A stretch of DNA of 64,000 bases, from NCBI RefSeq assembly GCF_055900595.2, contig NZ_CM148325.1. One strand, given 5' to 3'. Of the stretch, positions 13,351 to 50,267 are shown piece by piece. The number at the start of each line of letters is the position of its first letter. Within the stretch, counting starts at the first letter, position 1. Below the pieces are notes generated by a model. The model worked only from the letters and a program-made list of their open reading frames with translations, did no database searches and was not told where the DNA came from. The position numbers were made by a program, and so were the translations under genes.

Positions 13351-13866
<516 letters not shown>

Positions 13867-13873
13867 CACTAAC

Positions 13874-13898
13874 GCCCGCACATTGCTGCGGGCTTTTT
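13874..13898 (+). terminator. Intrinsic terminator after uspF
   Basis: Hairpin GCCCGCA-cattgc-TGCGGGC followed by TTTTT. Confidence 0.6.
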
Positions 13899-14041
13899 GA
13901 TTCATTTCGCAAATGTGCTGACATTTTCCCCTCTAATCCGTACCATACACGCCACAGTTTTTATATCAGATTTCTTATGCTGGGCGTTCCGGCATGACGC
14001 ATACTCTTCTGATGCCATATAACGAATTGAGTCGCTTTTAA

Positions 14042-14977
14042 ATGTCGCAAAATCAAGAAATTAGTAAGAAAGAACAATACAACCTGAACAAATTACAAAA
14101 ACGTCTGCGTCGTAACGTGGGCGAAGCCATTGCTGACTTCAATATGATTGAAGAAGGCGATCGCATCATGGTTTGCCTCTCCGGGGGTAAAGACAGCTAT
14201 ACCATGCTGGAGATTCTGCGCAATTTGCAGCAAAGCGCTCCAATCAATTTTTCGCTGGTGGCTGTTAACCTCGATCAAAAGCAACCGGGCTTCCCGGAAC
14301 ACGTTCTGCCCGAGTATCTTGAAAAGCTGGGCATTGAGTACAAGATTGTGGAAGAGAACACTTACGGTATCGTGAAAGAGAAGATTCCGGAGGGCAAAAC
14401 CACTTGCTCACTGTGTTCTCGTCTTCGTCGCGGAATTCTTTACCGTACCGCAACGGAACTGGGAGCGACGAAGATCGCGCTGGGTCACCATCGTGACGAT
14501 ATCCTGCAAACGCTGTTCTTAAATATGTTCTATGGCGGCAAGATGAAAGGTATGCCACCGAAACTGATGAGCGATGATGGCAAACATATTGTGATTCGTC
14601 CGCTGGCCTACTGTCGCGAGAAAGATATTCAACGCTTTGCCGATGCAAAAGCGTTCCCGATTATTCCGTGCAACCTGTGCGGTTCACAGCCTAACCTGCA
14701 ACGTCAGGTGATTGCTGACATGTTGCGTGACTGGGATAAACGTTATCCGGGGCGTATCGAGACGATGTTCAGCGCGATGCAGAATGTGGTGCCGTCGCAT
14801 CTGTGCGATACCAACCTGTTCGATTTCAAAGGCATTACCCACGGTTCTGAAGTGGTTAACGGGGGTGATCTGGCGTTTGATCGCGAAGAGATCCCTCTAC
14901 AACCGGCGGGTTGGCAGCCTGAAGAAGATGAAAATCAGTTGGATGAGTTACGACTGAATGTGGTTGAAGTGAAATAA
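14042..14977 (+). CDS. ttcA: tRNA 2-thiocytidine(32) synthetase TtcA
   Basis: 311-aa ORF with PP-loop SGGKDS and conserved Cys motifs ([16 protein letters not shown]). Confidence 0.9.
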
Positions 14978-20341: not shown

Positions 20342-21250
20342 TTAACTTTGCAGATAGCCGCATTCTCGCCGAAATTGCGTGATTAATGACGCGGTCAGTG
20401 GTGTCTGGCGACTATCACGCCGCTGAATCAAATAATAGGCCGCTTTCGGTAAAATTTCGCTAACCGGCAACATCACCAGCCCCTGTCCGTGCAAGGGATC
20501 GCAGCCCATTTCTTCAGGTAGTATGCTGAGAAAATCGCTTTTTGCCACCAGACTGATACAGGCTGAAAACGTCTCGCAGACTACGCCGACCTGTGGCGTT
20601 TGCGCCTGATCGTCAAGCAATTCACTCAACTGTTTGTAGTAGCTGCCGTGTGGCGTCGGCATTGTCCAGCTGTAGTCCAGTAACTGTTTGATCGAACGGG
20701 CACCAATGGCGGGATGTCCCGGGCGGCAAAAGATCGCGAATTGCTTTTCCAGTAATTTCTCAAAAGTAAATTCGTGGTCGTAGGGTCCCTGATAATAGGT
20801 ATTGATGGTGAAATCCAGTTCTCCCTGTCGCAATTCATTAATCATCGACACCAGTTGCCCTTCCATAATGCGTACTTTTACCTGCGGATGCTGCTGATGA
20901 AAACGAGATATGACAGCTGGCATCAGACTGCGGGAAATACTGGCCCCCATGCCGATATTAATTTGCCCTGCCAGTTGCCCTTGTCGTTGGCGAATATCCT
21001 CTTGCGCTGCGCGCAGCTCTTCAAGAATAAGACTGGCGTGCTGATAAAAACTTTCACCGGCATCAGTTAACGTCACGCCTTTACTACGGCGAAAAAAGAG
21101 TTGCGCCGCTAACCCTTCTTCCAGCTCCTGAATAGATTTACTCAGTGCCGGTTGCGACATATTCAACATGCGGCTCGCTCCGCGAATGCTGCCCTGACGA
21201 GCCACTTCAACAAAAGCCCGAATTTGATGAATTTTTACCTGAAAAGCCAT
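20342..21250 (-). CDS. abgR: LysR-type regulator AbgR
   Basis: 302-aa ORF with N-terminal HTH (LNMSQPALSKSIQELE); divergent from abgA. Confidence 0.9.
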   Translation of the reverse strand: MAFQVKIHQIRAFVEVARQGSIRGASRMLNMSQPALSKSIQELEEGLAAQLFFRRSKGVTLTDAGESFYQHASLILEELRAAQEDIRQRQGQLAGQINIGMGASISRSLMPAVISRFHQQHPQVKVRIMEGQLVSMINELRQGELDFTINTYYQGPYDHEFTFEKLLEKQFAIFCRPGHPAIGARSIKQLLDYSWTMPTPHGSYYKQLSELLDDQAQTPQVGVVCETFSACISLVAKSDFLSILPEEMGCDPLHGQGLVMLPVSEILPKAAYYLIQRRDSRQTPLTASLITQFRRECGYLQS

Positions 21251-28368: not shown

Positions 28369-28626
28369 TTACTGCTCTTCGCCGCCAAGGAAATAAATGC
28401 CCAACGGGATTGCCAGCAACACAGTAAAGACCAGGCTATAAACAAAAATCATTGATGACTGAATCACATACATTGATGTCGTCCACTCAGACAGCGGAAT
28501 ATTGTACTGTTCTATCACGCCGCCGATGGTCGCGCGAGTCACAACCGACGCCGCAATAATGAAAACCGCCAACAAACCAAAGAGAAATTTCTTCCCTTTC
28601 GCTGACTTCAGTTTCGCCATAATCAT
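28369..28626 (-). CDS. ynaJ: Small inner-membrane protein YnaJ
   Basis: 85-aa ORF with two predicted TM helices (MIMAKLKSAKGKKFLFGLLAVFIIAAS...). Confidence 0.8.
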   Translation of the reverse strand: MIMAKLKSAKGKKFLFGLLAVFIIAASVVTRATIGGVIEQYNIPLSEWTTSMYVIQSSMIFVYSLVFTVLLAIPLGIYFLGGEEQ

Positions 28627-28869
28627 GATGTAATCCTTGTGCAGACAAATTTTTTGTTACCTCTATGCAACAATACCATGACATTTCACTCTTGTCTGCT
28701 CTGAAAACCTCACCTCTTAGCCGGATTTACAATCAATGCATTGATTTGTTAGCTAATGTTGCTACTTACTTCCCTGACTATTGATGATCTGAATGAATTG
28801 TCGCGGTAAAATATCCCCGCCAGGGGTTTCCGGCATGACGACAATTATCTGGAGGAGCCTGATAAAACA

Positions 28870-29901
28870 ATGATCGCTGAACTGTTTACAAATAATGCGC
28901 TTAATCTGGTCATTATTTTCGGTAGCTGCGCAGCATTGATTCTGATGAGCTTTTGGTTTCGCCGTGGAAATCGTAAAAGAAAAGGGTTTTTATTCCATGC
29001 GGTGCAATTTTTCATCTACACCATAATTATCAGTGCTGTTGGTAGCATCATTAATTATGTTATAGAAAACTATAAACTCAAATTTATCACCCCAGGCGTT
29101 ATCGATTTTATCTGTACGTCCCTGATTGCGGTTATTCTGACGATTAAACTATTTCTGCTGATAAATCAGTTTGAAAAACAGCAGATTAAAAAAGGTCGCG
29201 ATATCACCAGTGCGCGGATTATGTCGCGTATCATCAAAATCACCATTATTGTGGTACTTGTTTTGCTTTATGGCGAACATTTCGGCATGAGCCTTTCTGG
29301 CTTGTTGACCTTTGGTGGTATTGGTGGTCTGGCTGTCGGTATGGCCGGTAAAGATATTTTGAGTAATTTCTTTTCCGGGATTATGCTCTATTTCGACCGT
29401 CCTTTTAGTATTGGCGACTGGATCCGTTCACCGGACAGAAATATCGAAGGTACAGTAGCGGAAATTGGCTGGCGAATTACCAAAATTACGACCTTTGATA
29501 ATCGTCCATTGTACGTACCGAACTCGCTGTTTTCGTCAATCAGCGTAGAAAACCCTGGACGAATGACCAACCGGCGCATTACCACGACCATTGGTTTACG
29601 TTATGAGGATGCGGCAAAAGTGGGCGTTATTGTCGAAGCCGTACGTGAGATGCTGAAAAATCACCCGGCCATCGACCAGCGACAAACCTTACTGGTTTAT
29701 TTCAACCAGTTTGCTGACTCCTCATTGAATATTATGGTTTATTGCTTTACCAAAACCACGGTATGGGCTGAATGGCTTGCCGCCCAGCAGGATGTTTATT
29801 TGAAGATTATCGATATTGTACAGTCACACGGCGCGGATTTCGCGTTCCCAAGCCAGACGCTGTATATGGATAACATTACACCACCAGACCAGGGTCGTTA
29901 A
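28870..29901 (+). CDS. ynaI: MscS-family mechanosensitive channel YnaI
   Basis: 343-aa ORF with N-terminal TM helices and MscS-type C-terminal domain. Confidence 0.9.
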
Positions 29902-29946: not shown

Positions 29947-31560
29947 TCAATGTTTCACAATATACATAGTCCGGCTATACGCCACATCTTCCGGGTTATT
30001 AATGGGATAACCTTTCAGCCACGGTTTGATTAATCGTCCATTGGTATATTGATAAATTGGTGCAATCGGTGCTTGCTCCATGAGGATTTTTTCTGCCGCG
30101 TTGTAATCGGCATTACGCGCTTTAACGGTATTTTCCGTCGATGCCTGGGCCAAAACTTTGTCGTAGGCCGGGTTGTTAAAGCGTGAAATGTTGCCTGAAT
30201 GCGTTGACGTTAATAATGTCAGGAAGGTGGAGGGTTCATTATAATCCCCCACCCACGAGGCGCGGATAACATCAAAATTACCTGTATTACGACTATCGAT
30301 ATAGGTTTTCCATTCCTGATTTTGCAGTTTGACATCTACACCAAGGTTCTTTTTCCACATCGATGCCACAGCAATCGCAATTTTTTGATGGTTTTCTGAA
30401 GTATTATACAAAAGCGTCAGCTTCAGCGGTTTTTGCGGACCATAACCGGCTGCGCTCAACAAAGTTTTTGCCTGCGCATTCAGTTCTTCCTGACTCATTT
30501 GTTCAAACGGCGAAGGCTCCGGCGTGAATCCGGCAGTAACATCTGGCGTAAAATGCCACGCTGGTTTTTCGCCCGTCCCCAACACTTTTTCGGTCATCAG
30601 GCGGCGATCTATCGTCATACTTAATGCCAGGCGAACGCGCTGATCTGCCGTCGGCCCTTTTTGCGTGTTAAACGCATAATAATAGGTCCCGAGCTGCGGC
30701 GGCGTATAAACCTGCCCCGGAATATCCTTCAACAGCTTCTGATACATATTTTTCGGGAAGGATTCGGTGATATCAATATCCCCCGCGAGATAACGCTTAG
30801 TGGCAGCGGATTCCTGATTAATTGGCAGGAAGGTCACTTTTTGCAGTACCGTTTTGGCGTTATCCCAATAATGGGTATTCGGCACCACGACCAGTTTTTC
30901 ATTGACTACGCGCTCTTTAAGAACATAAGCGCCATTGCCGATCAGATTTCCGGGTTTCGTCCACTCTTTACTGCTTTCTACGTTGGCTTTTTGCACCGGG
31001 AAGAAGGCAAAGTTAGCGGTTAAATTCACAAACCACGGCAATGGTTTATCAAGCTGGATTTTCAAAGTATGGGCATCAACTGCGGTGACGCCAAGCTGGT
31101 CAGGCGTGGCTTTACCATCAATAATCGCCTGTGCGTTGTTGATTCCCGCCAGCGCGGCAAACCATGCAAATGGCGAAAGTGTTTTCGGGTCCACCAGACG
31201 CTGCCAGCTGTAGACAAAATCTTGCGCCGTTACCGGTGTGCCATCCGCCCATTTTGCGTTATCGCGCAGGGTAAAAGTCCAGATACGGTTGTCATTACTT
31301 TTCCACTGAGTCGCAACGCCAGGGACAATCTCCCCTTTCTCGTTCTGATTCACCAGTCCTTCAAATAGATCGCGAATGACCTGAATCTCTGGCAGGCCCA
31401 CGGCTTTAGCGGGATCCAGCGACGCAGGCTCATCTTTAATGTGGCGCACCAGCTCCTGCTTCTCTGCCAGTACTGTGCCGCTCGGAACTTCTGCAGCATA
31501 CGAAAGAGAAATGCTGCTGACCAACAGCGCACAACACGTGACTGAAACAGAGTGCTTCAT
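29947..31560 (-). CDS. mppA: Periplasmic murein tripeptide-binding protein MppA
   Basis: 537-aa ORF with signal peptide; OppA-like family 5 solute-binding protein. Confidence 0.9.
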   Translation of the reverse strand: MKHSVSVTCCALLVSSISLSYAAEVPSGTVLAEKQELVRHIKDEPASLDPAKAVGLPEIQVIRDLFEGLVNQNEKGEIVPGVATQWKSNDNRIWTFTLRDNAKWADGTPVTAQDFVYSWQRLVDPKTLSPFAWFAALAGINNAQAIIDGKATPDQLGVTAVDAHTLKIQLDKPLPWFVNLTANFAFFPVQKANVESSKEWTKPGNLIGNGAYVLKERVVNEKLVVVPNTHYWDNAKTVLQKVTFLPINQESAATKRYLAGDIDITESFPKNMYQKLLKDIPGQVYTPPQLGTYYYAFNTQKGPTADQRVRLALSMTIDRRLMTEKVLGTGEKPAWHFTPDVTAGFTPEPSPFEQMSQEELNAQAKTLLSAAGYGPQKPLKLTLLYNTSENHQKIAIAVASMWKKNLGVDVKLQNQEWKTYIDSRNTGNFDVIRASWVGDYNEPSTFLTLLTSTHSGNISRFNNPAYDKVLAQASTENTVKARNADYNAAEKILMEQAPIAPIYQYTNGRLIKPWLKGYPINNPEDVAYSRTMYIVKH

Positions 31561-31742
31561 AAGTTTCCCTCAAACCTGCGTTAATAATCATGCGTAATTA
31601 TTTGTTTCGCCTTAAAGAAATGCAAACAACTTCCGGCAAAAAAGTGATACAAGATCGATAACATAGCGTTGAAGAAAAGGATTTGATAATCCGCAAAATT
31701 TGCACAACACTGCCTGTAATACTTCCTGAACCAGAGACGATT

Positions 31743-32471
31743 ATGACCGTAACCCGCCCACGCGCCGAACGCGGCGCATTTCCGCCCGGAACAGAACATT
31801 ACGGACGTTCATTATTGGGCGCGCCTTTGATCTGGTTTCCGGCCCCAGCCGCCAGTCACGAAAGTGGTTTGATTCTGGCTGGCACCCACGGTGATGAAAA
31901 CTCTTCGGTCGTGACCCTCTCCTGTGCTCTGCGGACATTGACACCTTCTTTGCGCCGCCATCATGTGGTGCTGTGTGTGAATCCTGACGGTTGCCAGTTA
32001 GGGTTACGGGCCAATGCTAATGGCGTGGATTTAAATAGAAACTTTCCGGCAGCAAACTGGAAGGAAGGTGAAACGGTTTATCGCTGGAACAGCGCCGCTG
32101 AAGAACGTGATGTCGTTTTACTGACAGGTGACAAACCTGGCTCCGAACCTGAAACTCAGGCGCTGTGCCAGCTTATACATCGCATTCAACCTGCCTGGGT
32201 GGTCTCATTCCACGATCCACTGGCCTGTATTGAAGACCCCAGACACAGCGAATTAGGCGAATGGCTGGCCCAGGCGTTTGAATTGCCTCTGGTAACCAGC
32301 GTCGGTTATGAAACACCTGGCTCTTTCGGCAGTTGGTGTGCGGATCTCAACCTGCATTGCATCACCGCAGAGTTTCCGCCCATCTCCTCCGACGAAGCCA
32401 GCGAAAAATATCTCTTTGCGATGGCAAACTTGCTGCGCTGGCATCCTAAAGATGCAATTCGCCCGTTGTGA
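31743..32471 (+). CDS. mpaA: Murein peptide amidase A (gamma-D-Glu-Dap amidase)
   Basis: Track ORF 31683..32471; start moved to MTVTRPRAERG (242 aa); zinc carboxypeptidase-like HGDE motif. Confidence 0.85.
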   Translation: MTVTRPRAERGAFPPGTEHYGRSLLGAPLIWFPAPAASHESGLILAGTHGDENSSVVTLSCALRTLTPSLRRHHVVLCVNPDGCQLGLRANANGVDLNRNFPAANWKEGETVYRWNSAAEERDVVLLTGDKPGSEPETQALCQLIHRIQPAWVVSFHDPLACIEDPRHSELGEWLAQAFELPLVTSVGYETPGSFGSWCADLNLHCITAEFPPISSDEASEKYLFAMANLLRWHPKDAIRPL

Positions 32472-33411: not shown

Positions 33412-33529
33412 CTTTACTCCTTGTTGTCGCGGTGGTCTGCGGATTAAGCGCAAATAGCGTTTGCTGTGTTATTGACAGTTAGCATAAACTAGGTGTGACG
33501 TTAACTATATGTAAACAGGAAAGATAATC

Positions 33530-34033
33530 ATGTCACAAACCGTTCATTTCCAGGGCAACCCGGTTACAGTCGCCAATTCCATCCCGCTGGCGGGTAGCAA
33601 AGCGCAGACTTTTACTCTCGTGGCAAAAGATCTGTCTGACGTCACCCTCGGTCAGTTTGCGGGTAAACGCAAAGTGCTGAACATTTTCCCGAGTATTGAT
33701 ACCGGTGTTTGCGCCGCATCAGTACGTAAGTTTAACCAACTGGCAACCGAGATCGACAACACCGTTGTGCTGTGTATCTCTGCCGATCTGCCGTTCGCCC
33801 AGTCTCGTTTCTGCGGCGCAGAAGGTCTGAACAACGTTATCACCCTCTCCACTTTCCGTAACGCTGAATTCCTGCAAGCCTACGGTGTGGCAATTGCTGA
33901 TGGCCCACTGAAAGGTCTGGCAGCGCGTGCCGTTGTGGTTATTGATGAAAATGACAATGTGATTTTCAGCCAGCTGGTGGATGAAATCACCACCGAGCCG
34001 GATTACGAAGCAGCTCTGGCTGTACTGCGCTAA
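33530..34033 (+). CDS. tpx: Thiol peroxidase Tpx
   Basis: 167-aa ORF with peroxidatic Cys context ([10 protein letters not shown]). Confidence 0.95.
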
Positions 34034-34040
34034 ACAACTG

Positions 34041-34080
34041 TGCCGTTCACTGAATCACCACCGGTGAACGGCAGTTTTTT
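34041..34080 (+). terminator. Intrinsic terminator after tpx
   Basis: Hairpin TGCCGTTCAC-N13-GTGAACGGCA followed by TTTTTT. Confidence 0.6.
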
Positions 34081-34178
34081 GATCTACCAGTCCCACTATT
34101 TTCCAGAGTTCCTGCCACTATTCCCCCTAACCGTTGTGCATTAAGATTGCTCTTTGCCATTATTGGCCCAGCGGAGTG

Positions 34179-36230
34179 ATGACTATTATGGATGATAAAC
34201 AAATTACGGTCTGGCTTAAACACAATTGCTGTTCAACGGACATTCCTGCCATTGCCGAGGCACTAACGAACCATGCAGAATGGCTTTTAGAGCTAGCGCC
34301 AGATCCTATTGAACAAGGTAGTTCATGTTTACCGCCGACAGCTGCAGCCGGTATTTTTCTTGGCGCAGCGGCGATGGTTCACTGCGGCGAGGCTAGTGGT
34401 GCAGAAACCTGGCTCGAAGCAGCCATTACTGATTACCATTTCCTTAATCCAAATGGATATAGTTCATGGAGAGGCAGTACGCCTGTTTTTACAGCAATAT
34501 CGCGTTACCCGGCATTAAGAATGGTGTTATTTAACGCCGCTTGCGCAATGGAAGACTGGAATAAAGCATCCGCTGTTCTTGAATCGCTTTTCCATGCCAG
34601 CGATGTCCCGGAAGATAACCCTGTCGCCCCAAATTTTACCCCTTATGCGCTGAAAGCGTTTATCGCGGATTACCACCCGTTAGGGCCTGCTTATTATGAT
34701 GAAACCTGGTTGCTGGCAAAACAAGCGTGGTTAATTAATGCGGGCGTTCTGGATGAGCGAACCTGCAATACCTGGAAGCAATATACCCGCCACTTGCGCC
34801 ATTTGATCCACAATGCACAGTTTGCCGATGCGCTCTCTTTTGTACGCAGTAAAATAGAACCGTTAAATCATATCCATACCTACTCAGACTTTTATCTGTA
34901 TGCGATTGGTTTATTTTCTTATACTAGTCAGCTAAATGAAGCGCTGACCTGGATAAAACAGTTAATCCACAACAATGATGGTCATTTCTGTGATCTTTTC
35001 GTTTCAACTGGCAAAGAGCGCCGAATAAAGCCTGAACTTAGTACCTTGCTGAATAATCTCTTGCACAGCGCAGAGTTTCAGGCGTTGCAGGATAAATATC
35101 TCACCGTCGGACATGATGTTGTGCATTCTGGTCCCTTCATGTCAGTTTATGAAAAGGTTCTTGGCGGAAAGTCCCGAAAGCGCTGCGCGATTAGTCGAAA
35201 ATTAATCTCGCCCGGCGAAGCGGTTTATGAATATCGTCATTTGGATAGTGTGGAATATATTGCAGCGAAAGCGGCCTTTCAGACATCTGAGCTAAATAAT
35301 ATCGCCCACCGGCATCATAATGATAGTTATCAGTGGCATGAATTTGCCGCCCAATGGCCTCGTCGGGGTTCACTTTCTCACCCAGATATTGCCCGTTATT
35401 TGTTTGAGCGCCAGGAAGGAAAATGCTTTGATGCCGCAGAGTTTATACAACTGATTGCGGAACCGTTTGTCTTTCCGATGCGTTTCATATGGGTTGCCGG
35501 GTTGTCCTTTGAATTACATCAGTATCCGGATGCCTATTTCGTAAATGACAATATGGCGGGTGAATTTGTTAATCTCTGCTGGATGGCTATGAAATGCGGA
35601 CATGCTGGCGACATTTTCAAACAACTGGCCCACGAGCCGCATGACGTTGCTGACCCTATTTACGCCATGCTCGCCACGTTTGACCGCGCTGATTGCCGTA
35701 GCGCGGCCGCCGCGCACTTTGGACAACCGGAACTACCGGAAATAATGGCACTGGCTTTCAGTTCGAGGTTATCGCTCGACAGCGTCCTTACCATCGCTGA
35801 GTTTGGTAAAAATCAGCCGCGATTTTCACATGCGCTAGCAACGGCCCTCCTGCGTTACAACCTGCACATCTACTCAAACTATATGCCGCAGGTTAATTGG
35901 TACCTTCAGGGGCTGGAACACTATGCTTTGGCAAAAGGCGGTCAACTTTTAAATTTCTTTGTGCATATTCCAGAACAAATTCCCGTTCTGGCGACCATGC
36001 TGGAACATGGCGTATTAGTGCGTGGGATCGGTGAAGGTGCCTATGATGGTTATGATAATTCAGCAAATTCATTTCATCATGCCGTCGTGATGCACTGCCT
36101 CGCGCACGCGCCGGAAAAAGTCCGCTACTGGATGGAAACACCCTGGATTCAGAACTATTTAGTGAATGCGCCGCTGCGTCAAACGGCGCGCCATGTGGAA
36201 GCCTGGCATAAAAAGTTTGGCATCAAATGA
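34179..36230 (+). CDS. Hypothetical protein (~683 aa), function unknown; not present between tpx and tyrR in K-12 as I recall
   Basis: Track ORF 34134..36230 (opens with TTG); likely start ATG 34179 or 34188 downstream of GGAG (34174..34177). No signal peptide, TM segment or Walker A motif seen; Trp/Tyr/His-rich, apparently helical. Sits between tpx terminator and a GC hairpin (36239..36259) shared with the tyrR 3' end. Confidence 0.6.
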   Translation: MTIMDDKQITVWLKHNCCSTDIPAIAEALTNHAEWLLELAPDPIEQGSSCLPPTAAAGIFLGAAAMVHCGEASGAETWLEAAITDYHFLNPNGYSSWRGSTPVFTAISRYPALRMVLFNAACAMEDWNKASAVLESLFHASDVPEDNPVAPNFTPYALKAFIADYHPLGPAYYDETWLLAKQAWLINAGVLDERTCNTWKQYTRHLRHLIHNAQFADALSFVRSKIEPLNHIHTYSDFYLYAIGLFSYTSQLNEALTWIKQLIHNNDGHFCDLFVSTGKERRIKPELSTLLNNLLHSAEFQALQDKYLTVGHDVVHSGPFMSVYEKVLGGKSRKRCAISRKLISPGEAVYEYRHLDSVEYIAAKAAFQTSELNNIAHRHHNDSYQWHEFAAQWPRRGSLSHPDIARYLFERQEGKCFDAAEFIQLIAEPFVFPMRFIWVAGLSFELHQYPDAYFVNDNMAGEFVNLCWMAMKCGHAGDIFKQLAHEPHDVADPIYAMLATFDRADCRSAAAAHFGQPELPEIMALAFSSRLSLDSVLTIAEFGKNQPRFSHALATALLRYNLHIYSNYMPQVNWYLQGLEHYALAKGGQLLNFFVHIPEQIPVLATMLEHGVLVRGIGEGAYDGYDNSANSFHHAVVMHCLAHAPEKVRYWMETPWIQNYLVNAPLRQTARHVEAWHKKFGIK

Positions 36231-36267
36231 ACGTTGCCGCTGCGCCTTAACGGCGCAGCCAGCACAA

Positions 36268-37809
36268 TCACTCTTCGCTTTTCTTCTGGTTTAAGCCATA
36301 TTCCCGCAACTTATTGGCAATCGCGGTATGCGAAACACCGAGACGTTTTGCCAGTTTGCGTGTGCTGGGATAATTGCGATAAAGCTGGGTTAATACCGAG
36401 CGTTCAAAACGGCTGGTGATTTCGTCCAGCGAACCTTCCATCGCATCTTCGCCCACGGCTACCGTTGCGGCGTCATAATCCGGTAACAAAATATCCTGTG
36501 GACGCAGCTCATAGCCGTCCAGTTGTGTCAGTGCGCGATAGATAGCGTTCTTTAACTGCCGCACATTTCCCGGCCACGCATAACGCGTAAGTACAGTATT
36601 CAGGTCAGCGGCCAGTTTCGGACGCGGCACGCCCTGCTCGTCGGCAAAGCGGGCGACGAACAGCTCGGTTAACGGCATGATGTCCTGCGGACAATCACGT
36701 AGCGGCGGCAGATTGAGCGTCAACACGTTCAGACGATAATAGAGATCTTCACGGAACACGCCTTTTTGCACCAGTTCGACCAAATTCTTCTGCGTAGCGC
36801 AAATAACCCTTACATCGACATGCACTTCATGATCTTCACCAACTCGACGGAAAGTACCATCATTAAGGAAACGCAGTAATTTCGCCTGCATCCGTGGTGA
36901 CATCTCACCTATTTCATCCAGCAGCACCGAACCACCGTTCGCCTGCTCAAAGAATCCTTTCTTCCCTTCCGGAGCATGACCAAAGAGCTCACTCTCGACC
37001 GCATCTTCCGGTATAGACGCACAGTTCAGCGCCAGGTAAGGTTTGCTCGCTCTGGGGCTTGCCTGATGGCAGGCGTAGGCAAAGAGATCTTTACCTGTAC
37101 CGGTGTCACCCGTAATCAGCAACGGCGCGCTTAGCATCGCCAGTTTCTGCGCCTGTTCGACAACATGCTTCATTTTCGGGCTGACGGCGACAATTTGACT
37201 GAAGGCACTGACGTCCTGTGCAGCGACATTCTGCAACTGACGGCCCATACGAATCGTCGAGCGCAACATCACCACCGCACCGGTCAGAACGTGTTGATCA
37301 TTTTCATCCTGAAGATAAACAGGCGTAATCTCCATCAGGAAATTCTGCCCATTAATAACGACATGCTCGTTATGCGAGTCTTGCGGTTCGCTTTCCAGCC
37401 AGCGTAAAAAATTAAAGCCGTTAATTAATTGCGCGGCGGTATGGTTGCGCAGGCGATCCAATTTTTGCCCAAAAAGCTGACAGCTCGCCGGGTTCGCCAT
37501 ATCCACTTTGCTTTTCATATCAACAGAAAGCACAGGTTCAGGCAACGCCTCCAGTAACGCGCTCAACGCCAGATGCTCACGTTCGGAAGGCATCCACGGG
37601 ACAGTACGCACATCGGTAACACCTGCAATACGGCGTATTTCGGCCATCAGACTGCTGAAGCTCTCAAACTCCAGTTCAGCAAAATTGAGGTAGATTCGCC
37701 CAATGGGGTCAATCTCAATACCGCGTAAATCAATGCCTCTTAGCACGAGTAGATCGAGTAATTCGCGGGTCAGACCGAGTCGGTCTTCACAAAAGACTTC
37801 CAGACGCAT
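36268..37809 (-). CDS. tyrR: Transcriptional regulator TyrR (sigma54-type AAA+ domain, HTH)
   Basis: Track ORF 36268..37836; start moved to MRLEVFCEDRLGLTREL (513 aa); Walker A GDTGTGKD. Confidence 0.95.
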   Translation of the reverse strand: MRLEVFCEDRLGLTRELLDLLVLRGIDLRGIEIDPIGRIYLNFAELEFESFSSLMAEIRRIAGVTDVRTVPWMPSEREHLALSALLEALPEPVLSVDMKSKVDMANPASCQLFGQKLDRLRNHTAAQLINGFNFLRWLESEPQDSHNEHVVINGQNFLMEITPVYLQDENDQHVLTGAVVMLRSTIRMGRQLQNVAAQDVSAFSQIVAVSPKMKHVVEQAQKLAMLSAPLLITGDTGTGKDLFAYACHQASPRASKPYLALNCASIPEDAVESELFGHAPEGKKGFFEQANGGSVLLDEIGEMSPRMQAKLLRFLNDGTFRRVGEDHEVHVDVRVICATQKNLVELVQKGVFREDLYYRLNVLTLNLPPLRDCPQDIMPLTELFVARFADEQGVPRPKLAADLNTVLTRYAWPGNVRQLKNAIYRALTQLDGYELRPQDILLPDYDAATVAVGEDAMEGSLDEITSRFERSVLTQLYRNYPSTRKLAKRLGVSHTAIANKLREYGLNQKKSEE

Positions 37810-48408: not shown

Positions 48409-49197
48409 TTAGCAGGTGCGCAACCAGGCCAAAGAATCACGGTACGCCTGAGCAGGATCTTCTGCCCGGATACGCCCTTCATACACCACATAGCCCTGAT
48501 AGTTATCGGCGCGCAACTGTTCAAACAGCGCGTGGAAATCGAGGGTGCCGCTGCCCGGCTGATAGCGATGGTTATCGGCAATATGCACATGACCAAGCAG
48601 GTCACGGTTGTCATGCAGCGCCTGCGCCAGGTTATCCTCTTCGATGTTCATGTGATAGAAATCGCCGATAATCTGCACATGTTTAAGGTTGTTTTCGACG
48701 ATGTAACGACGAGCATCGGCGAGCGTGTTGATCATGTGGTCCTGATAGCGGTTTAGCGGTTCGAGATACACCACCGTTCCGGTACGCGCGGCTACCTTCT
48801 CCAGGAAACGCAGGGAATCGCTCACCATTTGACGATCGCCGTCCAGGCTGCGCGGCGAGGTCATCGGCGGTAAGCGAAAGGTAAACATGCCCCACGCTGC
48901 TGGAACGACAATACCTTTGCCGCCCACTTCCGCCAGCGCCTCAAGAATGCGCTCGATCTGCTTTAAACCATTAAGACGACGCTCTTCGATAAAGTCGCCA
49001 ATCCAGCCGTCATAGCCGCCGCAGGCGGTGGTCACCGGTAAACCGGTTTCTTTGATCGCTGCTTTGACTTCTTCGAGATTGTTGACCAGCAGTTTGCCGT
49101 CAATCTCAAAACCATCAAAACCCATCTCTTTGATATAACGAAATTTCTCCAGAATATTTTCCGGAAAGAAGGCCTGATTCTGTGTGCCGATTTTCAT
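48409..49197 (-). CDS. ycjR: Sugar phosphate isomerase/epimerase (xylose isomerase-like TIM barrel)
   Basis: 262-aa ORF MKIGTQNQAFFPENILEKFRYIKEMGFDGFEI... Confidence 0.9.
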   Translation of the reverse strand: MKIGTQNQAFFPENILEKFRYIKEMGFDGFEIDGKLLVNNLEEVKAAIKETGLPVTTACGGYDGWIGDFIEERRLNGLKQIERILEALAEVGGKGIVVPAAWGMFTFRLPPMTSPRSLDGDRQMVSDSLRFLEKVAARTGTVVYLEPLNRYQDHMINTLADARRYIVENNLKHVQIIGDFYHMNIEEDNLAQALHDNRDLLGHVHIADNHRYQPGSGTLDFHALFEQLRADNYQGYVVYEGRIRAEDPAQAYRDSLAWLRTC

Positions 49198-49213
49198 TTT
49201 TCCGTCCTTAGAA

Positions 49214-50267
49214 TTAAAAAGTTACGCCCATTTTGATGCTCTGTTCCGGATGCTGGTCGACATACTGCATGTAGCTTTCCGGGCTGTTAGCAAAGGTCAC
49301 CACCGGGTCGATTAAATCTTCACAATTGAGATAACCGTTCATCAGCAGTTCCCAGCAGGTTTCTTCAATACGCTTGCGGCTCCAGCGCGGATAATCCGGG
49401 TTCGGTTCACTGCACGCACGAGAGAAGACAATTTTGGCGTTGTTGAAATGCGCTTCACGTCCGAGGTTAAAACCTTCAGCAAACGGTTTGGCAAACGCAA
49501 CATAGGAGATGGTGCCGCCATAAGCCAGGCCGCGCAGTGCCGATTGCAGCGCGTCGGCGTAGCCGCTGGTTTCGATAATCACATCGGCACCCTGCTTGCC
49601 GGTCAGCGTTTTAATCTCTTTGCCTACATCCGTGCCAATGGGGTTAAGGCAGAAATCCGCCCCGTGGCGACGGGCAATATCACAGCGATGAGCGATAGGA
49701 TCGACACCAATCACCACCGACGCGCCAGCGCGTTTTGCCAGTTGAATGGCAATTTGACCAATCGCGCCAAGCCCTACCACCACCACAAAATCGCCCACGC
49801 GCACGTTGGCATCGCGCACGCCGCTCATGGCAAACTGCGCCGGGTCGTAACAGACGGCGTTTTTCCACGAGCTACCTTGCGGCATTTTGCGCAGTTTGTA
49901 GTTATTCACCGCGTTAATGATGACCGTTTCGGAAAGCGGGCCGTAGCCGCATACGCTGTCGCCCACCGCGTAGTCGGTAACCTCGCTGCCGCACTCGATA
50001 ATGTCGCCAACCACCATGTTGCCAAGCTGGAACTTGCCAAACTCAATGCCGCGCGGCGCATCTGCCGGACGGGGGGGTGAACATCTGCCATTCGCCATTA
50101 AAGTCTTCATTAATAAACGGGCTGGCGGCGCGGAAATCGACCACTTCCGTCCCGTGTTTCGGCGCGCCGAACCGCACGCGGATCTTCACTTCATTGGCTG
50201 AAATCGCCCTGTCTTCATACTCCACCAACGCGGCAACGCGCGGTGCTGTGGCTACTAACTTTTTCAT
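49214..50267 (-). pseudogene. ycjQ: ycjQ (zinc-type alcohol dehydrogenase) with +1 frameshift in a C7 run
   Basis: N-terminal 74-aa ORF (50043..50267, MKKLVATAPRVAALVEY...QMFTPPSGRCAARH*) and C-terminal 298-aa ORF (49214..50110) overlap in different frames around G7 at 50071..50077 (C7 on the coding strand). Confidence 0.7.

Follow-up and report, generated by a model that had tools for sequence, protein, structure and literature searches.

A rare gene between tpx and tyrR of Escherichia coli as a candidate orphan immunity protein of a family absent from domain libraries

Orphan immunity genes and acquired interbacterial defence clusters have reportedly been described in earlier work on Bacteroidales. 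Immunity has been shown experimentally for TsiV/DUF3396, a family directed against PAAR-like/VRR-Nuc nucleases belonging to type VI secretion systems (T6SS) (Hespanhol et al. 2022, PMC9635880), while the SUKH immunity proteins were covered in a separate study (Zhang et al. 2011, PMC3113570). Heterogeneous polyimmunity loci were used by Zhang et al. to nominate candidate immunity families, and immunity domains were found to be frequently fused to TPR or ankyrin repeats (PMC3482391). Here, we consider a single long open reading frame (ORF) that lies between tpx and tyrR in a window of 64,000 nucleotides of an E. coli genome (RefSeq assembly GCF_055900595.2, contig NZ_CM148325.1), this window being the whole stretch of DNA that was analyzed. 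Based on the genomic contexts of its relatives, we tentatively read the ORF as a stand-alone orphan immunity protein against an interbacterial toxin that acts in the cytoplasm, a reading that we consider quite possible, although still short of probable.

The initial annotation of the window had described one plus-strand ORF between tpx and tyrR, two genes that it gave as neighbours in K-12, and had taken it for a self-contained one-gene accessory cassette between conserved genes. The ORF listing bears out the first point, the two genes are indeed adjacent in K-12 with a spacing of 43 bp, and the cassette is supported by the analyses presented below. The length of the protein had been given as 683 amino acids (aa), with a start at 34179. 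This was corrected to 680 aa from the ATG at 34188 (Table 1), as the Met at this position is invariant in all homologs, as the upstream ATG (34179) is ATT in the 94% allele class and as the Prokaryotic Genome Annotation Pipeline (PGAP) places the coding sequence (CDS) at the same coordinates in the identical strain E200086. The CDS corresponds to WP_103253635.1 (UniProt A0A2K3TTE1), where this exact sequence is catalogued only as a 'hypothetical protein'. As the gene has already been deposited under this name, the sequence itself is not new, while its family is absent from the libraries that we searched.

No family of Pfam, NCBIfam, PADLOC or PHROGs matches the protein, even at permissive thresholds (0 families of PADLOC-DB v2 at E <= 1 and 0 of PHROGs), and the initial listing of the ORF as unrecognised stands, as profile searches gave no match to a housekeeping or any other named family. 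When 44 diverse relatives were scanned against Pfam, only ankyrin repeats were found, and in only 2 members; a separate scan of a 900-aa member (P0048) returned nothing, and a sequence-profile search of the PDB returned only designed PPR/TPR proteins that matched the N-terminal region. A word-indexed search of 5.8 billion proteins yielded 10 relatives, with identities of 91% in E. coli, 49-59% in Salmonella enterica and other enterobacteria and 39% for two members, and a profile search of the same set gave only close relatives. Exhaustive phmmer comparison with 1.84 billion cluster representatives gave 90 matches, 35 of them at E <= 1e-30, in which the common core spans approximately residues 316-680, some members being only ~500 aa long and some carrying other N-termini. 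Foldseek against AFDB50 found 22 relatives, all uncharacterised, from Enterobacteriaceae, Rhizobiales, Burkholderiales, Planctomycetota, Bacteroidota, Desulfovibrio, Listeria and spirochaetes. Two of these bear a DUF4034 label, yet membership in DUF4034 (PF13226) was rejected, since there was no match at E <= 10 for the query or at E <= 0.1 for the 44 members. Membership in TsiV/DUF3396 was likewise rejected, as neither the protein nor the 44 relatives match it in Pfam and as a TsiV hidden Markov model built here matches only neighbouring genes. Among 100,044 species-representative genomes, only two loci were found (Aliirhizobium terrae and Methylobacterium variabile), a scan of the Joint Genome Institute (JGI) metagenomes found only an identical E. 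coli contig, and relatives on mobile records amounted to one plasmid and no phage. Such an extremely patchy, cross-phylum distribution points to horizontal transfer.

To characterize the surroundings of the family, 15 distinct contexts of relatives were examined. Markers of polymorphic toxins or their immunity were found within 8-9 kb in 6 of these 15 contexts (TsiV/DUF3396 in three, SUKH in two, and DUF1963, WapI and Tli4_C), and the residence in polyimmunity loci considered by Zhang et al. (2012) is seen in these six contexts. In one locus (L023), four consecutive pairs of a PAAR-like toxin fragment and TsiV are followed by the family gene, which begins only 2 nt past the last TsiV. In Salmonella (L001), the gene lies in an island littered with insertion sequences (IS) that also holds TsiV, DUF4034 and DUF1266, while on a conjugative Sinorhizobium plasmid (L029) it is accompanied by two SMI1/KNR4, two DUF1963 and one DUF3396 genes. 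Other relatives are found in an array that includes SUKH_6 and DKNYY (L022), near a 1519-aa protein followed by WapI (L028), and, past hrpA, in an island that holds many small uncharacterised genes together with an ankyrin protein and a fragment of Tli4_C (L017). Two further contexts (L026 and L032) are same-strand arrays of small uncharacterised genes, several of which carry signal peptides. The only neighbour families that recur across loci are TsiV (three) and SUKH (two), and no conserved partner gene was revealed by all-versus-all BLAST of the neighbours or by permissive BLAST of the adjacent small genes.

Some of these loci hold further features of their own. In L023 (1..8000), the four pairs, each of a PAAR-like toxin or toxin C-terminal fragment and a TsiV/DUF3396 gene, form a typical orphan array, in which the toxin fragments share conserved N-terminal junction sequences, like the orphan modules of Rhs and contact-dependent growth inhibition (CDI) systems. 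In L001 (11114..14067), a minus-strand trio lies beside the family member and consists of DUF1266, a 703-aa DUF4034 protein and a 239-aa protein with no assigned family; kinship between our protein and this DUF4034 neighbour of similar size was rejected, with an hhalign probability of 1.7%. In L017 (13321..15971), three tandem paralogs of 289, 285 and 279 aa (28-35% identical, no Pfam match) are found downstream of the family member and resemble a polyimmunity array of the homogeneous type, made up of another unnamed family.

The 680-aa protein contains no signal peptide, no transmembrane (TM) helix (maximum KD19 = 1.52) and no Walker A motif, and is mostly helical with 5.6% His and 12.4% aromatic residues, so that the first description of the protein, as lacking signal peptide, TM helix and P-loop, rich in His and aromatic residues and helical, holds in every respect. 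As it has neither signal peptide nor TM helix, the protein should be cytoplasmic. AlphaFold gave only a mediocre model with 11 sequences (predicted local distance difference test, pLDDT, of 72), while 76 sequences gave a confident one (pLDDT 90.9, predicted template modelling score, pTM, of 0.92). Three parts can be distinguished in this model (Table 1). In the first, tandem helix-turn-helix repeats are predicted to form a solenoid, as expected of TPR repeats; in distant members, this N-terminal domain is shortened or replaced by ankyrin repeats. The small beta-strand domain carries a basic conserved motif, LGGKxRKRCxxSxxLIxPGExVYxYR, in which C333, G343 and R350 are kept throughout the family. 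The C-terminal all-alpha core is marked by the motifs KCG, FDxxxxRxxAAxHF, PRF and YxLHLYSNYxPxxxW, and no solved structural counterpart was found for this predicted domain. Positions conserved family-wide are mostly G, P, L, F, W and Y, with few polar residues (D189, C333, R350, D415, R504, R527, Y557, H560 and Y562), and no catalytic motif could be recognised among the conserved residues.

Within E. coli, the insert alone is present in 32 of 5426 complete genomes (~0.6%), where all copies are chromosomal and every copy inspected sits between tpx and tyrR. A 3.2-kb query (33500..36700) matches 5415 of the 5426 genomes, with the insert covered at >=80% in only 30. In a spread sample of 29 other genomes, 28 showed the same 1013-bp empty site and 1 gave a partial match, with no alternative cargo between tpx and tyrR. 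The insert is thus missing from K-12 and from ~99.4% of complete E. coli genomes, as the initial annotation had supposed for K-12. In plasmid records, the 3.2-kb query has 38 matching places and the insert alone has none, so that these plasmid pieces are tpx or tyrR rather than the ORF.

By nucleotide identity, the 32 copies fall into three allele classes (100%, ~98% and ~94%), with 8 genomes at 99% or above, 8 at 95-99% and 16 at 90-95%. Ten of the copies are broken, six being annotated as two ORFs (two of these six were inspected directly) and four carrying IS600, and truncated forms are also found among the 305 sequences of the protein's cluster. The ratio of nonsynonymous to synonymous substitution rates (dN/dS) of the ORF ranges from 0.27 (94% pair) to 0.53 (98% pair), as compared to 0.01-0.08 for tpx and tyrR, and selection on the ORF is therefore purifying but relaxed, being much looser than on its neighbours. 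The dS between allele classes, 0.145, is close to that of the adjacent tyrR (0.17-0.20).

In the mechanism that we propose, competing bacteria would inject a toxin through T6SS, Rhs or CDI-type polymorphic toxin systems, and the protein would bind the incoming toxin and block it. The neutralising module may be formed by the conserved helical core at the C-terminus and the small basic beta-domain, while the variable N-terminal repeats (TPR here, ankyrin in some relatives) could provide an extended protein-binding surface. As no cognate toxin gene is found beside the E. coli gene, protection would be aimed at the weapons of other strains and not at self-intoxication, and the gene would be of use only in some niches and easily lost. 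This reading of the ORF as an orphan immunity protein draws on the residence in polyimmunity loci, the tandem paralogs, the swapping of repeat domains and the patchy horizontal spread, as well as on the accelerated evolution, the presence or absence and decay of the gene, the cytoplasmic nature of the protein and the lack of a catalytic signature or an obligatory partner. As no conserved partner gene was found, the protein would act alone, and the mostly structural conserved residues, with no catalytic motif, suit a binder. Patchy distribution, strain-level presence or absence and accelerated evolution are apparent from the 32 of 5426 E. coli genomes, from the 2 loci in 100,044 species representatives, from the presence of the family in at least eight distant lineages and from the dN/dS values.

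Several points nonetheless weigh against this reading and need to be considered. In seven of the 15 contexts, the gene stands alone among housekeeping genes (as a tandem pair in L006) and neither toxin nor immunity genes lie close by, namely at tpx-tyrR in E. coli, at malM-ubiC (L019), at ydcY-ydcZ (L006) and in four others (L004, L011, L021 and L024). In the enterobacterial L006 (3305..7484), the first copy is split into ORFs of 358 and 344 aa and the second is intact (676 aa), the copies being 46-63% identical to one another; a 'three-gene operon' with two upstream partner genes was accordingly rejected here in favour of a split paralog followed by an intact one. A co-oriented toxin gene directly upstream, the placement that Zhang et al. 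(2012) use to recognise immunity genes, was not seen in any locus examined: the gene upstream in E. coli is tpx with its strong terminator, and in L023 it is TsiV and not a toxin. With 680 aa, the protein is much larger than typical immunity proteins, and the motifs of its C-terminal core are kept across phyla, which is unusual for a binder that determines specificity and could mean an enzymatic or generic function. It should also be noted that the sample comprises only 15 contexts, whose immunity markers have no matched background from random genes, and that our search of the literature on this locus and on DUF4034 found nothing relevant, with no experimental work on the family.

Two of these points, the frequent singletons among housekeeping genes and the conservation of the core from Enterobacteriaceae to Rhizobiales, Bacteroidota, Listeria and spirochaetes, would be explained if the C-terminal domain were a new stand-alone, partner-independent module that, rather than binding a single toxin, neutralises a whole class of injected toxins or reverses the damage that they cause, although we consider such a broad-spectrum module rather doubtful. 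The same two observations (seven of 15 contexts among housekeeping genes, and cross-phylum core motifs that include H560, Y557, Y562, R504 and R527), together with the large multidomain protein and its well ameliorated codon usage, are also what one would expect of a niche-specific cytoplasmic scaffold or regulator outside inter-bacterial conflict, in which the TPR part would recruit a cellular partner, the C-terminal domain might be enzymatic and the immunity neighbours would be coincidental. Such a role deserves attention but is unlikely, as there is no catalytic motif and no likeness to any enzyme fold, as TsiV in three independent contexts and SUKH in two, in distant taxa, can hardly be there by chance, and as a useful metabolic or regulatory gene would not typically be so rare, so patchy and so often decayed. 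This decay raises the alternative that the gene is a functionless or near-functionless relic, acquired horizontally long ago and now drifting to loss in Escherichia. The 10 of 32 copies that are split or interrupted by IS600, the truncated cluster members, the dN/dS of up to 0.53 between close alleles and the lack of a recognisable promoter all agree with this, yet intact 680-aa ORFs are retained in all three allele classes despite a dS of 0.145, with a dN/dS of 0.27, and the full-length architecture and motifs are kept from E. coli to Rhizobiales and beyond, which makes a relic distinctly unlikely.

The initial annotation had suggested a defence or niche-specific function, of which interbacterial toxin immunity retains a part, as judged from context, whereas anti-phage defence finds no support. 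In such a single-gene defence, a phage component would be sensed by the repeat domain, with the C-terminal domain as the effector of abortive infection, and a rare, patchy and fast-evolving accessory gene that combines a repeat-type 'sensor' with an uncharacterised domain does have the expected appearance; moreover, L024 lies 5 kb from the type I restriction gene HsdR, L026 contains phage-like genes and L028 an integrase. However, neither PADLOC nor PHROGs gives a match, the gene is found in no phage record, its site in E. coli is no defence island and showed no alternative cargo in the 29-genome sample, the identifiable neighbours are toxin-immunity rather than defence genes and no nuclease, NTPase, TIR or similar effector motif is present, such that we regard this role as improbable. 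More improbable by far is that the protein is itself a secreted effector, be it T6SS cargo or a substrate of the type III secretion system (T3SS). While L023 adjoins arrays of PAAR-like toxins, the size of the protein is typical of effectors and several carrier strains appear, by their names only, to come from enteric-pathogen collections, there is no trafficking domain (PAAR, MIX, FIX, Rhs, LXG or another), and in none of the loci does a VgrG, Hcp or adaptor gene adjoin the family member. Furthermore, no immunity gene follows downstream, a lack that would kill the carrier of a singleton antibacterial effector, and the family is also found in bacteria such as Listeria, which lack T6SS.

Table 1 Features of the tpx-tyrR region, in positions of the window. 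Domain boundaries refer to the AlphaFold (AF2) model.
Feature	Position	Strand	Remarks
Flanking tpx	33530..34033	+	167 aa ending AVLR (stop); in K-12, 168 aa ending AVLKA (stop)
Carrier-haplotype segment, ~2.24 kb	34028..~36267		replaces the 43-bp tpx-tyrR spacer of K-12
tpx intrinsic terminator	34041..34080	+	12-bp stem (34041-34052 / 34062-34073), 9-nt loop, T6 run
5' untranslated and promoter region of the ORF	34082..34187	+	GGAG at 34173-34176
CDS, 680 aa	34188..36230	+	ORF listing; PGAP; invariant start Met in homologs; dN/dS 0.27-0.53, coding and constrained
N-terminal TPR-like alpha-solenoid, aa 1-305	34188..35102	+	predicted; variable part of the family
Small beta-strand domain, aa 317-360	35136..35267	+	AF2 strands 317-324, 345-351, 356-360
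C-terminal all-alpha core, aa 361-680	35268..36227	+	predicted; defines the family
GC-rich hairpin between the ORF stop and the tyrR stop	36239..36259		8-bp core stem (36239-36246 / 36252-36259)
Flanking tyrR	36268..37809	-	C-terminal end NQKKSEE (stop); in K-12, SQKKNEE (stop)

The alignment to K-12 breaks at 34027/34028, within the final tpx codons, and begins again at the stop codon of tyrR. On the left, the edge is sharp, while at the right edge 8 and then 3 mismatches are found in the first two 50-bp bins of tyrR, dropping to 0-2 over the next several bins, so that divergence reaches ~70 bp into tyrR. In K-12, tpx and tyrR share a bidirectional terminator. The tpx terminator of the carrier haplotype is stable (-19.9 kcal/mol, z = -4.51, with 0 of 200 shuffles as stable) and is kept in all allele classes. 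It had been taken as the boundary of the cassette; the hairpin is real, but as the differing unit starts inside the last tpx codons and brings its own terminator, the latter is a part of the cassette and not its border. The GC-rich hairpin before the tyrR stop, as first noted, is also real by folding (-19.7 kcal/mol on the plus strand and -24.5 kcal/mol on the minus strand, z ~-3.9). No U-tract follows it on the plus strand, and it is probably a terminator or an RNA-stabilising element for the convergent transcripts.

Upstream of the ORF, no consensus sigma-70 site was found in 34082..34187, and in one IS600-carrying allele an 8-bp deletion takes out the GGAG. This region also contains two copies of the 8-bp repeat CCACTATT, at 34093-34100 and 34115-34122, the second of which had been placed one position too early, at 34114..34121. 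We rejected a regulatory role for this repeat, since two or more matches arise in 39 of 100 shuffles and the 94% alleles do not conserve it.

The gene had initially been described as inserted or dropped in between its neighbours. While it is an accessory cassette, a clean mobile-element event (IS, transposon or integrative element) was rejected, as the cassette contains no mobility gene and its junctions show no target-site duplication; where an allele carries IS600, this element has inserted secondarily into the ORF. A recent foreign origin was also rejected in terms of composition, given that the G+C content at third codon positions (GC3) of the ORF is 45.7%, inside the local range, and that its codon usage is typical. 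The data are better fitted by a segment that came, through homologous recombination, from a donor in which the gene already stood beside tyrR. An old haplotype, rather than a recent drop-in, is indicated by the divergence that runs ~70 bp into tyrR and by alleles that differ by up to 6%, and also agrees with the tyrR-like dS, the typical GC3 and codon usage and the dN/dS values.

The ORF had been thought to be the only departure from the K-12 gene order in the window, which is not the case. At 31560..31743, mppA and mpaA are directly adjacent with a 183-bp divergent spacer, where K-12 has pgrR, ycjY and the ymjC' remnant (~2.6 kb), and the strain lacks the IS5 found in K-12 between ynaJ and ynaI (28626..28870). 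At 13432..14977, uspF adjoins ttcA. K-12 has the Rac prophage between these two genes, so that Rac appears to be absent from the present strain. Elsewhere in the window, abgR (20342..21250), the LysR-type regulator of the abg operon, is annotated in E200086 as a pseudogene with an internal stop, with abgA, abgB and abgT intact, and ycjQ (48503..49556), which belongs to the ycjM-W sugar cluster and encodes a zinc-dependent alcohol dehydrogenase, has a frameshift according to the annotation of the same identical strain.

If the immunity reading is true, these proteins would form a structurally new family of interbacterial-toxin immunity that is missing from Pfam, NCBIfam and the defence databases, and ordinary chromosomal sites, besides mobile islands, would be places where E. 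coli keeps rare orphan immunity genes. Such genes shape strain survival under T6SS, Rhs or CDI attack in the gut. This would be a structurally distinct family within a known kind of system, of interest to specialists in bacterial conflict rather than a major surprise. As a single gene with natural presence and absence, and with intact and broken alleles at one locus, it is directly testable. Should the immunity reading fail, what stays is a new domain of no assigned function, modelled with confidence, which would help annotation but have only modest importance beyond it.

When compared to known systems, the protein differs from generic TPR proteins (such as PlcR/Rap-type and Hop/Sti1 TPR modules), with which only 110-230 of its 680 residues can be aligned; there are no Pfam TPR matches, and the C-terminal domain is unrelated. 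With repeat-fused immunity proteins (Imm-Ank, HEAT-repeat and SUKH; PMC3113570, PMC3482391) it shares an all-alpha repeat domain joined to another domain and, with proteins of polyimmunity loci, mixed unrelated immunity families nearby, strain-level presence or absence and a wide but patchy phyletic spread. Unlike these, its C-terminal core matches no Pfam Imm family and about half of the members are singletons outside such loci. Relative to TsiV/DUF3396 (PF11876), for which immunity was demonstrated while here it is suggested by context, the protein is twice as large, is predicted to fold differently and, in E. coli, has no cognate toxin beside it. Like TsiV, however, it is cytoplasmic with no signal peptide, occurs in the same arrays and islands (L001, L023 and L029), has paralogous or orphan copies and would bind an injected cytoplasmic toxin. 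Finally, the orphan immunity genes of gut bacteria (PMC12247911) are usually small and clustered on mobile elements, whereas the present gene is a single one of 680 aa whose chromosomal site is fixed and free of mobility genes and which apparently spreads by homologous recombination of its flanks. Like them, it has no cognate effector, is rare and rapidly evolving, and would be expected to protect its carrier against the T6SS of other strains.

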